NCBI GenBank assembly: GCA_045863235.1
Contig: BTUM01000005.1
Coordinates: 122,912-186,911, forward strand
Length of the DNA: 64,000 bases
DNA from: Candidatus Xenobia bacterium
GTDB lineage: Bacteria > Vulcanimicrobiota > Xenobia > Xenobiales > QWHO01
Direction of reading: 5' to 3'
Shown piece after piece: positions 36,944 to 57,590 of this stretch. The notes under the pieces are model-generated. The model had not been told where the DNA came from. It made no database searches and saw nothing but the letters and a program-made list of their open reading frames with translations. Position 1 is the first letter of the stretch. Each line of letters opens with the position of its first letter. The position numbers and the translations under genes were made by a program.

Positions 36944-39178
36944 GTGACCATCCGGGATGTCGCAAGTCTGGGTCCGAGCCTGGGCAGGCCGCGTTCGGCA
37001 AGCGTTGCCGAGGGCGGAGCCCTGCCCCAAGATCGCGCCGATCTTGGCGGGCCGGCGCCCACGGAATTGGGGGGGAAACCAAGCTATACCACCCGCCTGC
37101 AGGCCATGCTGGTGGCCACCGAGTCCGAGTCCATGTCGCTTGCGCCCAAGCTGGCCGAGCATCTGGAGGGCGAGGTTCTGGTCAAGATGAAGCCCGGCCA
37201 GAGCGTGGGCTCGATCGAGGATTTCTGTGCCGAATATGGGGCCCGCGTGCTGGAGCGGATCGAAGTGCCCCCATCCATGATGCAGACCTTCGGCGGCGAG
37301 CTGGTACGCATCGCCATGCCCGAGGGGATCAACACCGCCCAGGGTATCGCCGTTTTGAGCAAAGACGTGCGGGTCAGTTACGCTTGCGCCAATGATGTCC
37401 TCAAGCACCTGGACGAAGGCGGACAGCTCATTCCCAACGACCTCGACCCGAAGCTGTGGGGCCTGCACAACACCGGCCAGGAGAATGGCACGCCCAACGC
37501 CGACATCAATGCGCCCGAAGCCTGGAACATCACCACCGGCAAGCGCGAGGGCGGCCCGCTCATCGCGGTGGTGGACACCGGTATCAACTATGGACACAAT
37601 GACCTGCGCGCCAACGTGTGGGTCAACCCGGGCGAGATTCCCGGAGACGGCATCGACAATGACGGCAACGGGGTCATCGACGACGTGCATGGCTACAACG
37701 CCATCAACGGCACGGGCGATCCCAACGACGACCACTCCCACGGCTCGCACTGCATGGGCACCGTGGCCGCCGAGGGCAACAACGGCCTGGGGGTGGTGGG
37801 CGTCAACTGGCAGGCCCGGGTGATGGGAGCCAAGTTCCTTTCGGCCCAGGGCTCGGGCAGCACCGCCGACGCCATCAAAGCCATCCTCTACGCCACCCGC
37901 ATGGGAGCCCGCATCACCTCCAACTCGTGGGGTGGCGGAGCTTACAACCAGGCCCTTTACGACGCCCTCAAGGCCTCCCCGGCCCTGCACATCTTCGCGG
38001 CCGGCAATAGCTCCAACGACAACGACAAGCGGGCGAGCTACCCTTCCAGCTACAACCTGGACAACATCGTGGCCGTGGCCGCCACCGACAAGAACGACCG
38101 GATGGCCGGCTTCAGCAACTGGGGACGCACCAGCGTCGACCTGGGAGCTCCCGGCGTCAATATCTACTCCACCGTGCTCGGACAGGACTACAAGCTGTTC
38201 AGCGGCACCTCCATGGCCACTCCCCACGTGGCCGGGGTGGCCGGACTGATCGCTACCGCCTTTCCTGAGGCCAGCAACGCCGAGATCAAGGCCCGCCTGA
38301 TGAACGGGGCCGACAAGGTGCCCGCTCTGAACGGCAAGTGCGTCACCGGGGGTCGTCTGAACGCCTTCAGCTCGCTCGACAACGATACCGTGGCCCCCGC
38401 CGCCCCCGAGGACCTGCGGCCTGCCCAGGTGGGCGCCAAGGCCGTCACCCTGACCTGGACCGCGACCGGCGACGATGGCCTGGAGAAGCGTGCCTCGGGC
38501 TACCTGCTCAAAGTCTCCGAGCAGCCCATCACCGACGAGGCCAGCTTCCTGGCCGCCCGCACCGTGCCCACCGGGGTTCCCGGCGAGCCTGGCACGGCCG
38601 AGCGCATCACCGTGGGGTTGATCCCCTCCTCCAGCGAGCGCACGCTCTACTATGGCCTCAAGGTCATCGACAACGTGGGGAACACTTCTCCCCTGCGCAT
38701 CGGACAGACTCCCGTGCCGGCGGCCCGGGTGGCCTTCGAGGATCGCATGGAGGGCGATGCCTCGGCCTGGACTCCGACCGGACTGTGGGGCCGGGTCGAG
38801 TGGGAGGGCAACGGTCAGGTCTGGACCGACAGCCCGGATGTTCCCTACCAGAACGACTCCAACACGACGCTCACCTCCCGGTCCATCTCGCTGGCTGGCA
38901 TTCAGGGCGCCACGTTGCTCTTCGACGCCCGCTACGAGATCGAGTCAGGTTTCGATTTCCTCAACGTCGAGGTTTCCGAGAACGGACGCGACTGGACCAC
39001 CCTCGGGCGACTGACCGGCTCGCGCGAGTGGGGCACCCAGCAGATGGATCTGTCCAACTACGACGGAAAGGACGTCCGGATTCGCTTCCGGATGCAGGCC
39101 GACGGCTCCATCAACGCCGACGGCTTCTACCTCGACAACGTCGTCGTGGCGGGCGATCCCAAGCCACCGCAGGGATAG
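36944..39178 (+). CDS. Subtilisin-like serine protease (S8) with I9 propeptide, FN3-like linker and C-terminal MAM-like beta-sandwich domain (paralog A)
   Basis: GTG start with RBS GAGGAG-N7. Triad blocks VVDTGINYGHNDL, HGSHCMGTVAAEG, GTSMATPHVAGVAGLI. Downstream TVAPAAPEDLR...VTLTWTATGDDG (FN3-like). C-terminal MAM-like domain (WGRVEWEGNGQVWTDSP...FLNVEVSENGRDWTTLG...GFYLDNVVV). No signal peptide; the N-terminus begins (M)TIRDVA. Confidence 0.9.
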   Translation: MTIRDVASLGPSLGRPRSASVAEGGALPQDRADLGGPAPTELGGKPSYTTRLQAMLVATESESMSLAPKLAEHLEGEVLVKMKPGQSVGSIEDFCAEYGARVLERIEVPPSMMQTFGGELVRIAMPEGINTAQGIAVLSKDVRVSYACANDVLKHLDEGGQLIPNDLDPKLWGLHNTGQENGTPNADINAPEAWNITTGKREGGPLIAVVDTGINYGHNDLRANVWVNPGEIPGDGIDNDGNGVIDDVHGYNAINGTGDPNDDHSHGSHCMGTVAAEGNNGLGVVGVNWQARVMGAKFLSAQGSGSTADAIKAILYATRMGARITSNSWGGGAYNQALYDALKASPALHIFAAGNSSNDNDKRASYPSSYNLDNIVAVAATDKNDRMAGFSNWGRTSVDLGAPGVNIYSTVLGQDYKLFSGTSMATPHVAGVAGLIATAFPEASNAEIKARLMNGADKVPALNGKCVTGGRLNAFSSLDNDTVAPAAPEDLRPAQVGAKAVTLTWTATGDDGLEKRASGYLLKVSEQPITDEASFLAARTVPTGVPGEPGTAERITVGLIPSSSERTLYYGLKVIDNVGNTSPLRIGQTPVPAARVAFEDRMEGDASAWTPTGLWGRVEWEGNGQVWTDSPDVPYQNDSNTTLTSRSISLAGIQGATLLFDARYEIESGFDFLNVEVSENGRDWTTLGRLTGSREWGTQQMDLSNYDGKDVRIRFRMQADGSINADGFYLDNVVVAGDPKPPQG

Positions 39179-57590: not shown

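Follow-up and report, generated by a model that had tools for sequence, protein, structure and literature searches.

The window analyzed here, a 64,000-nucleotide (nt) stretch of the genome of a Candidatus Xenobia bacterium, an uncultivated member of the Eremiobacterota (Vulcanimicrobiota) (contig BTUM01000005.1, positions 122,912 to 186,911 of the forward strand), raises the question of how large proteases of a secreted type could leave the cell when their N termini carry none of the classical export signals. Three of its genes, designated A, B, and C (Table 1), encode S8 subtilases that begin with a short, predicted disordered segment, hereafter the leader. It is highly probable that the leader belongs to the class of Sec-independent export signals. 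More specifically, and tentatively, it is proposed to be a type III (flagellar-type) export signal that is related, by descent or by function, to the N-terminal export region of FlgM, a reading to which we assign a probability of about 0.4. Export itself, the leader as its signal, and a type III gate as its machine are what we infer from the data that follow.

The assignment of the three products as S8 subtilases was supported by domain, residue, and fold data. A Pfam scan matched Fervidolysin_NPro-like, Peptidase_S8 (E = 1e-53 to 3e-61), and InhA-like_MAM domains in A, B, and C, with the S8 model (PF00082) scoring 181 to 208 bits against a gathering cutoff of 21.8. The catalytic residues D209, H267, and S421 and the oxyanion residue N325 (C numbering) were invariant in a 74-sequence alignment. 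The fn3 model gave a subthreshold match in C only (E = 0.006); despite this weak match, a beta-sandwich was found at residues 490 to 595 in the AlphaFold model of C, which was built with 74 relatives, had a mean predicted local distance difference test (pLDDT) score of 88, and comprised a prodomain, a subtilisin fold, and two beta-sandwiches. The first-pass annotation had proposed an architecture of four parts, namely, an I9 propeptide, an S8 domain, an FN3-like module, and a MAM-like sandwich. The prodomain, S8, and MAM-like parts were recovered in all three proteins by Pfam and a sandwich was placed at the FN3 position by AlphaFold, but the prodomain was not Inhibitor_I9, the match being to Fervidolysin_NPro-like instead. 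Judged by their residues, A, B, and C are assigned as intact S8 subtilases of the deseasin/fervidolysin type with an intact catalytic apparatus.

In a Foldseek search with the model of C, the best Protein Data Bank (PDB) match was deseasin MCP-01 (3vv3_A; 51% identity; template modeling [TM] score, 0.91), TM scores of 0.89 to 0.91 were obtained for thermitase and subtilisins, and fervidolysin (1r6v) was also matched. Deseasin MCP-01, from Pseudoalteromonas sp. SM9913, is a secreted collagenolytic S8 subtilase and is likewise a multidomain protein with an N-terminal prodomain, the identity to C lying in the catalytic domain. The C-terminal modules differ, being FN3-like and InhA-like MAM in the window proteins, and the Pseudoalteromonas and Shewanella relatives in the fetched loci (e.g., L017) carry Sec signal peptides, whereas the window proteins carry the disordered leader. 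Fervidolysin, from Fervidobacterium pennivorans, shares the order of prodomain, S8 domain, and two beta-sandwich domains, as well as the Fervidolysin_NPro-like match. It is, however, only 19% identical, its domains are packed differently from those of the model (whole-chain root mean square deviation, 27 Å), and it has no comparable leader.

No Sec h-region was found in A, B, or C in a hydropathy scan of the N termini, and none of the three has a Tat twin-arginine motif with an h-region or an h-region followed by a lipobox (L-x-x-C). Within the first 40 amino acids (aa) of A to C, the highest Kyte-Doolittle mean over 12 residues was 0.26 to 0.51, compared with 2.5 to 3.1 for neighboring Sec and lipoprotein signals. 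Ordinary signals are indeed carried by neighbors in the window, with a Tat signal on the sulfatase at 10288 and lipoboxes at 42445, 29225, and 5870. A signal-peptide-like hydrophobic stretch in the first 45 aa was seen in 0 of 112 relatives with a complete N terminus. The hydropathy scan, the motif check, and the relatives thus agree with the first-pass annotation, in which the three proteins were described as lacking a Sec or Tat signal and a lipobox. Nor was a canonical signal supplied by corrected upstream starts, as the frames preceding A and B either are closed or contain no start codon, and the few upstream starts of C add no signal-like sequence. Marker domains of type I (RTX), type IX (CTD), and type VI (PAAR, MIX) secretion gave no match in Pfam and NCBIfam scans.

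In homologs from eight other phyla, a classical signal peptide was found immediately before the conserved prodomain start (..YVPGEVLVKF). Since these homologs carry a Sec signal peptide directly before the prodomain, the leader occupies the place of the signal peptide. It was concluded from these alignments that, in this lineage, a predicted disordered leader has replaced the Sec signal peptide of the other-phyla homologs.

The leader is 35 to 50 aa long, and its disorder was predicted from AlphaFold pLDDT values of 29 to 39 over residues 1 to 49 of C. A low-complexity N-terminal stretch of about 60 aa had been described at first; a disordered stretch does exist, but at a pLDDT of <50 it covers only about 35 to 50 aa (residues 1 to 49 in C). 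Three short islands are conserved (Table 1), and the leader is otherwise hypervariable in the alignment and rich in Ala, Pro, Ser, Gln, and Arg. The peaks of information content were I2 (3.0 bits), P36, and D38, with 2.1 bits at the hydrophobic position 5, and minimal leaders keep island 1 alone (e.g., MISKLHSPHVPGELLV). Since residues 1 to 49 of C have the low pLDDT values given above, island 3 is deduced to lie outside the prodomain fold. The three N termini are as originally read, V/M-TIRDVA in A, MRVDQIQ in B, and MIRDLQ in C, and conservation of the motif, which had been named as a point to check in orthologs, was found both in the orthologs and in about 110 family members. Between C and its 80%-identical ortholog (L004), the first 25 codons differ by about 10 synonymous and 2 nonsynonymous changes, and this synonymous excess points to selection on the peptide rather than on the mRNA. 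Neither the leaders alone nor the full proteins matched a known N-terminal domain in Pfam or NCBIfam, no curated family covers the leader, and no paper describing it was found in the literature.

The leader of C additionally contains a Cys cluster, CSCGSCAKC (55413 to 55439, residues 21 to 29), which is kept in the 80% ortholog, while other leaders carry CGCS, CGCGE, or CSGGCSE at this place (P0020, P0022, P0038, P0046, and P0054). Metal binding and postexport disulfide formation are possibilities for the role of the cluster in C.

The leader was apparently not confined to the subtilases. Regular-expression and hidden Markov model (HMM) scans of every candidate start for leaders produced too much noise, with false positives at internal starts, and a position-specific scoring matrix (PSSM) made from the first seven leader residues was used instead and applied to called gene starts. 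Housekeeping proteins in the S8 loci had mostly negative scores. The 602-aa protein, which is not an S8 protease and whose gene is transcribed divergently from the short S8 gene D, ranked among the best genes (Table 1); its leader is followed by a two-lobed hydrophobic segment, and it has an HEVGH zinc-protease-like motif and no Pfam family. The leader candidate of the 901-aa protein is weak and was judged by eye because its PSSM score was only -1.1. The 1026-aa protein, for which the same start is called in public assemblies, has a leader reading MAIEDLNAV...RRPPRP...AQEELELSGPS and contains Gly-zipper-like hydrophobic segments. The 193-aa protein begins in a similar manner (Table 1). Outside the window, two Gly-rich membrane proteins in a sister assembly have leader-like starts, and a PQQ beta-propeller protein in another genome (L085) has the leader MRISTLHAAQARSRPRP...EDWVSLS; a protein database search with this leader-bearing propeller returned only 2 proteins. 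From the short PSSM and inspection, on which these assignments rest, the leader is apparently modular and is found on unrelated signal-less neighbors.

Other features of these neighbors were also recorded. The 901-aa and 1026-aa proteins have no Pfam match and no detectable homology to each other; both contain Ala/Gln-rich coiled-coil-like stretches, and their Gly-zipper-like segments are reminiscent of pore-forming or translocator proteins. For the 254-aa open reading frame (ORF) with a DcrB-like match, a single-sequence AlphaFold model had a pLDDT of 41, which is too low for use; PF08786, formerly DUF1795, is the family of the Eag chaperones, which shield transmembrane segments of secreted effectors. 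A C39/C70-like cysteine peptidase (63526 to 63999, running off the end of the window) starts with MRISSLAL and has a hydrophobic N terminus followed by a copy of island 3, PVDRVTLGQS. Proteins of the Endonuclease I family are usually secreted; the homolog in the window (23627 to 24676) has no signal peptide, and its N terminus, MNALSAIHHPGLRWTARPVAASVAPDRLTTG, contains R-P and P-D-R-L-T-T-G islands and a poor first island.

The proposed relation to FlgM was suggested by several comparisons. When a leader profile was searched against all PDB sequences, the sole match was FlgM (9wsf_B) at an E value of 0.17, and a shorter profile gave 0.84, neither being significant alone. Positions 1 to 52 of the leader HMM aligned with residues 1 to 48 of Bacillus FlgM at 14.8 bits, spanning the three islands, and 0 of 3,000 shuffles reached this score. 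The comparison of the leader with Bacillus FlgM by hhalign gave a P value of 1.6e-4 and a probability of 50%, with columns 2 to 43 aligned to columns 1 to 39. FlgM sequences from Bacillus, Aquifex, and E. coli, as well as 9wsf, all contain a [DE]-x-V-x-[LI]-S box. When the seven-residue PSSM was applied to 46 E. coli flagellar-region proteins, the top three were FlgG (MISSLWI), FlgJ (MISDSKL), and FlgM (MSIDRTS), and export substrates scored above nonsubstrates (one-sided P = 0.016).

FlgM (PF04316), the anti-sigma-28 factor, resembles the leader in its M-x-I N terminus, in a disordered stretch rich in Ala, Pro, Ser, Gln, and Lys, and in a P-x-D-x-V-x-[LI]-S box some 30 to 40 residues in. The leader matches the N-terminal half of FlgM only and lacks the C-terminal sigma-28-binding helices, and it is fused to large enzymes, whereas FlgM is free-standing. 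Flagellar substrates are recognized through a disordered N-terminal peptide. FlgM leaves the cell through the type III system of the flagellum, and foreign proteins are exported when fused to FlgM (PMC3372961); Campylobacter exports nonflagellar proteins via its flagellar type III system (PMC2764114). The Campylobacter Cia proteins and the engineered FlgM, FlgE, and FliC fusions would share with the window proteins an export directed by an N-terminal disordered signal in the absence of a Sec signal (PMC2764114, PMC3372961). They differ in that export of the window proteins is a proposal, in that the cargo here is much larger, and in that the leader is common to a paralogous family and to unrelated proteins and is conserved across a phylum-level lineage.

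Under the type III reading, the unfolded proenzyme would be recognized via its disordered N terminus and would pass in a single step through a type III export gate. Once outside, the enzyme would be folded by the prodomain, which would be cleaved off together with the leader, leaving the FN3-like and MAM-like sandwiches to bind substrate. If this is true, the window proteins would be nature's equivalent of the FlgM fusions engineered for foreign-protein secretion, and the lineage would have rerouted large degradative enzymes from Sec to one-step export. A simple sequence rule would then predict part of the Eremiobacterota secretome, and the leader would offer a compact tag testable for laboratory protein secretion. 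Should the machine prove to be something other than type III, a pathway of another kind would be marked by the leader. A broader proposal, which we consider somewhat doubtful, is that the leader is a new secretion signal that, in one Eremiobacterota lineage, has replaced Sec beyond these subtilases, on hydrolases and membrane-active proteins as a class, served either by a flagellum-derived, secretion-only type III apparatus or by a new machine; natural "FlgM-tagged" enzymes would then be a main means of secretion in a bacterial group that is poorly known and may be predatory.

A number of results weigh against the assignment to type III export. FlgM was picked for testing after the sequences had been viewed, so the statistics given above are post hoc. 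The score of E. coli FlgM against the leader HMM was not significant (reached by 191 of 3,000 shuffles), the Pfam FlgM model did not match the leaders even at E ≤ 10, and a leader-only profile searched against 1.84 billion representative proteins returned one truncated S8 protein only, this profile being too weak for a census. Type III export of multidomain hydrolases of 75 kDa would be unusual in nature. No flagellar or type III genes adjoined any S8 locus examined, and no sigma-28-type promoter was seen upstream of the leader-bearing genes, where a direct repeat was found instead. When 14 E. coli flagellar proteins were used as tblastn queries against 441 kb of related, partly overlapping loci, no match was obtained, a negative that is uninformative because 441 kb is a small sample of such a genome (one relative has a single 3.95-Mb contig). 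Flagella are absent from Vulcanimicrobium alpinus, the sole member of the phylum in culture (PMC9758169).

In the literature on secretion systems of the Xenobia class and the Eremiobacterota, only the annotation tables for Eudoremicrobium were informative. The annotation of "Candidatus Eudoremicrobium taraoceanii" comprises a complete flagellar set, L and P rings among it, and places flhA on another scaffold (PMC9259500); the supplement of that paper lists flhA, two fliP genes, two FliI/SctN ATPases, flgE, flaB, flgH/I, flgK/L, and fliS. Export machinery of this type is thus present in another lineage of the phylum. One leader-bearing S8 protein (P0083) comes from Tara Oceans contigs and may belong to the genus Eudoremicrobium.

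Of the other explanations, the one ranked second to type III export is that the leader is the signal of an undescribed, non-type III pathway of the Eremiobacterota and that its likeness to FlgM is convergent, arising from a disordered composition rich in Ala, Pro, Ser, and Gln and a beta-strand-like box. The replacement of the signal peptide, the conservation, the disorder, and the presence on unrelated proteins fit such a pathway equally well, as do the lack of type III genes in the sampled loci, the lack of a Pfam or NCBIfam model covering the leader, and the modest similarity to FlgM (in E value and in hhalign probability). We nevertheless regard it as unlikely, as no candidate machine was seen for it either and as both the ranking of the E. 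coli substrates and the end-to-end Bacillus FlgM alignment would then be coincidental. It is more improbable that the proteins are not actively exported at all but function in the cytoplasm or escape through lysis or within vesicles, the N terminus serving to delay prodomain folding, to anchor the protein, or to control its turnover. The closest characterized relatives, such as deseasin, are secreted, homologs elsewhere have Sec signals at the same position, MAM-like and FN3-like modules typically occur in extracellular enzymes, and active broad-specificity subtilases would be hazardous in the cytoplasm; the conservation of the first seven residues across hundreds of leaders that otherwise diverge also suggests a recognition element. 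These points were set against the existence of signal-less S8 proteases (NCBIfam gave subthreshold matches to CspBA-type germination proteases), the lack of a secretion apparatus in the sampled loci, and the expectation that the leader would be removed with the prodomain anyway. The suggestion in the first-pass annotation of a dedicated export route is upheld as far as the conserved, signal-less N terminus, the secreted-type enzymes, and the missing upstream signal are concerned, while the route itself is a proposal.

The remaining explanations are progressively less likely. A long double-glycine-type leader, cleaved by a C39 peptidase and carried out through an ATP-binding cassette (ABC) transporter by a type I-like route of the peptidase-containing ABC transporter (PCAT) kind, would fit those leaders that end island 3 with GG, SG, or GGS, the C39/C70-like peptidase gene 6 kb downstream, and an ABC transporter near one S8 pair in L086. 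It has little probability, as Gly-Gly is not conserved after island 3 (Ser is conserved and the following residues vary), the C39-like protein is free-standing, with 213 aa, its own hydrophobic N terminus, and no ABC fusion, and the ABC gene is not kept in the syntenic locus L083. The known cargo of the PCAT route consists of small peptides, which also counts against it. Loading of the leader proteins into a contractile system (type VI or extracellular injection) by an Eag/DUF1795-like chaperone appears more remote still. Its attraction is that the subthreshold DcrB match adjoins the 1026-aa protein with its hydrophobic segments and that neighbors have Gly-zipper-like toxin features, but the Pfam and NCBIfam scans gave no prePAAR, PAAR, MIX, or VgrG features, the chaperone match lies below threshold with a structure model of too low pLDDT, and prodomain-dependent S8 proenzymes are poor candidates for folded delivery. 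Finally, the chance that the start codons are misassigned and that normal signal peptides lie upstream is negligible. A few database entries with longer N termini (P0039, P0041, and P0094) might be cited for this and were not counted as support; in them the MI motif lies within the sequence, preceded by an extension that lacks hydrophobicity. The closed or startless upstream frames, the Shine-Dalgarno motifs before A and C, and the 112 relatives described above speak for the assigned starts.

We return to type III export as the preferred reading and to the genes that carry the leader. A, B, and C are real genes by their length and by a third-position G+C content of 0.84 to 0.92, the window having a G+C content of 62 to 71%. 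Shine-Dalgarno-like GAGGAG/AGGAGG motifs lie 5 to 13 nt upstream of the A and C starts. The fourth, shorter S8 gene that had been reported nearby was confirmed as gene D, which is only about 24% identical to A, B, and C. Gene C has a 99%-identical copy on contig CAUJEN010000191.1, labeled "Candidatus Eremiobacteraeota bacterium isolate KLAP168," and a 175-kb contig of a "Vulcanimicrobiota" metagenome-assembled genome (MAG) carries its 80%-identical ortholog. More distant relatives are labeled with the same phylum names, and some MAGs are labeled "Armatimonadetes." A scan of genome contigs with protein C gave five true relatives only, its patterns being overly specific, and a metagenome-contig search with the family alignment returned mostly distant S8 proteins.

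The direct repeats upstream of A and C (Table 1) fit the pattern GTTCAY-N5-GTTYAC, which has exactly 2 matches in the 64 kb, these two, where 0.3 would be expected by chance. A similar GTTCAT..GTCAC repeat is present at the C ortholog in L004. Because the repeat is shared upstream of both genes and has only these two matches in the window, it suggests a candidate site for an OmpR/PhoB-type regulator and a common response-regulator-type control of A and C.

Protein identity among A, B, and C is 50.5 to 57.5%, and DNA identity is 69 to 71%; the identity of about 70% given in the first-pass annotation applies to the DNA only. Orthologs of A (79%; P0016), B (74%; P0096), and C (80%) all lie on one contig of another species, and A has a further, 95%-identical ortholog (P0015). 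By these identities, A, B, and C are assigned as old paralogs, each with a one-to-one ortholog in another species, and since each has its own ortholog on one contig of that species, the triplication is older than the species split. Other contigs of the same genome assembly encode at least two further members of the family (P0029 and P0116).

The near-identical stretch of more than 40 nt that had been noted in A and C is present, with a length of 42 nt and one mismatch. The longest exact run between the two genes is 30 nt, or 10 identical codons encoding KLWGLHNTGQ. Identical residues share the codon in 67% of cases, and a run of 10 identical codons had a simulated probability of 0.15, so that conserved residues and codon bias explain the near-identity. 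Gene conversion between A and C was considered and rejected, as a run of this length is expected in 15% of simulations and the two genes have separate orthologs. The proposal that such segments are substrates for recombination was likewise not sustained, an exact identity of 30 nt in 70%-identical genes being a poor substrate.

Table 1. Coordinates and characteristics of the S8 genes, leaders, repeats, and leader-associated neighbors in the window
Feature	Position	Strand	Description
S8 paralog A	36944..39178	+	744 aa, GTG start; leader, prodomain, S8, FN3-like and MAM-like domains
S8 paralog B	40156..42399	+	747 aa
S8 paralog C	55353..57590	+	745 aa
Domains of C	approximate residues		prodomain 55-152; S8 201-456; FN3-like sandwich 490-595; MAM-like sandwich 600-743
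Short S8 gene D	32010..33305	+	431 aa from GTG; starts MRIPATT; no signal peptide, no MAM domain
Leader of A	36944..37087	+	about residues 1-48; M-TIRDVAS ... GRPRS ... LPQDRADLGG; PSSM score 9.2
Leader of B	40156..40263	+	about residues 1-36; MRVDQIQ ... QPQRA ... GPADSVQLSS
Leader of C	55353..55499	+	residues 1-49, predicted disordered: MIRDLQNFALNTNQAVTRPSCSCGSCAKCAPKAADPKETVELGSS
Island 1	extreme N terminus		M-(x)-I-x-x-[IVL]-[RN]; Ile 3.0 bits
Island 2	about 15 residues further on		R-P
Island 3	just before first helix of prodomain		P-x-D-x-[VA]-x-[LI]-S
Direct repeat GTTCAC-N5-GTTCAC	36863..36879	+	65-81 nt upstream of A
Direct repeat GTTCAT-N5-GTTTAC	55262..55278	+	75-91 nt upstream of C
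42-nt stretch	37439..37480	+	matches 55845-55886 with 1 mismatch; encodes nearly invariant DLDPKLWGLHNTGQ
602-aa non-S8 protein	30076..31884	-	leader MQIQTVRLASAPQRPQPAP...PDRSERIGS; PSSM score 8.5, third best of 84 genes
901-aa protein	33532..36237	+	candidate leader MTNNVNLGQ...PPEMKDQVLLGQD; Gly-rich hydrophobic segments; no Pfam match
193-aa protein	53420..54001	-	starts MILRSDPP; coiled-coil-like stretch, two-lobed hydrophobic segment
1026-aa protein	57723..60803	+	GTG start
254-aa ORF	60810..61574	+	directly downstream of 1026-aa protein; subthreshold DcrB match (PF08786), 25.0 bits versus cutoff of 27.2

Further features were found elsewhere in the window. A Hist_deacetyl gene (8.5e-34) lies at 39205 to 40071, between A and B. 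A SAM riboswitch (51400 to 51511, minus strand, 70 bits) is upstream of a Cys_Met_Meta_PP gene (50105 to 51283) and a homoserine O-succinyltransferase gene (49063 to 50103), and a DUF433/DUF5615 (PIN-like) toxin-antitoxin pair occupies a stretch of lower G+C content at 51871 to 52506. At the corresponding place in the sister assembly (L001, 16273 to 17882), extra PemK and AbiEii genes are present that are absent from the window. The 254-aa ORF overlaps at its 3' end with a tRNA-Ser(GCT) gene at 61463 to 61552, called by ARAGORN and not by Rfam. A further four tRNA genes (Leu, Arg, Gln, and Leu) are clustered at 7667 to 8039 on the minus strand, and beside them, at 8792 to 12285, a radical-SAM/SPASM gene is followed by the gene for the Tat-signal sulfatase; by their families, these two genes look like a sulfatase-maturase pair.

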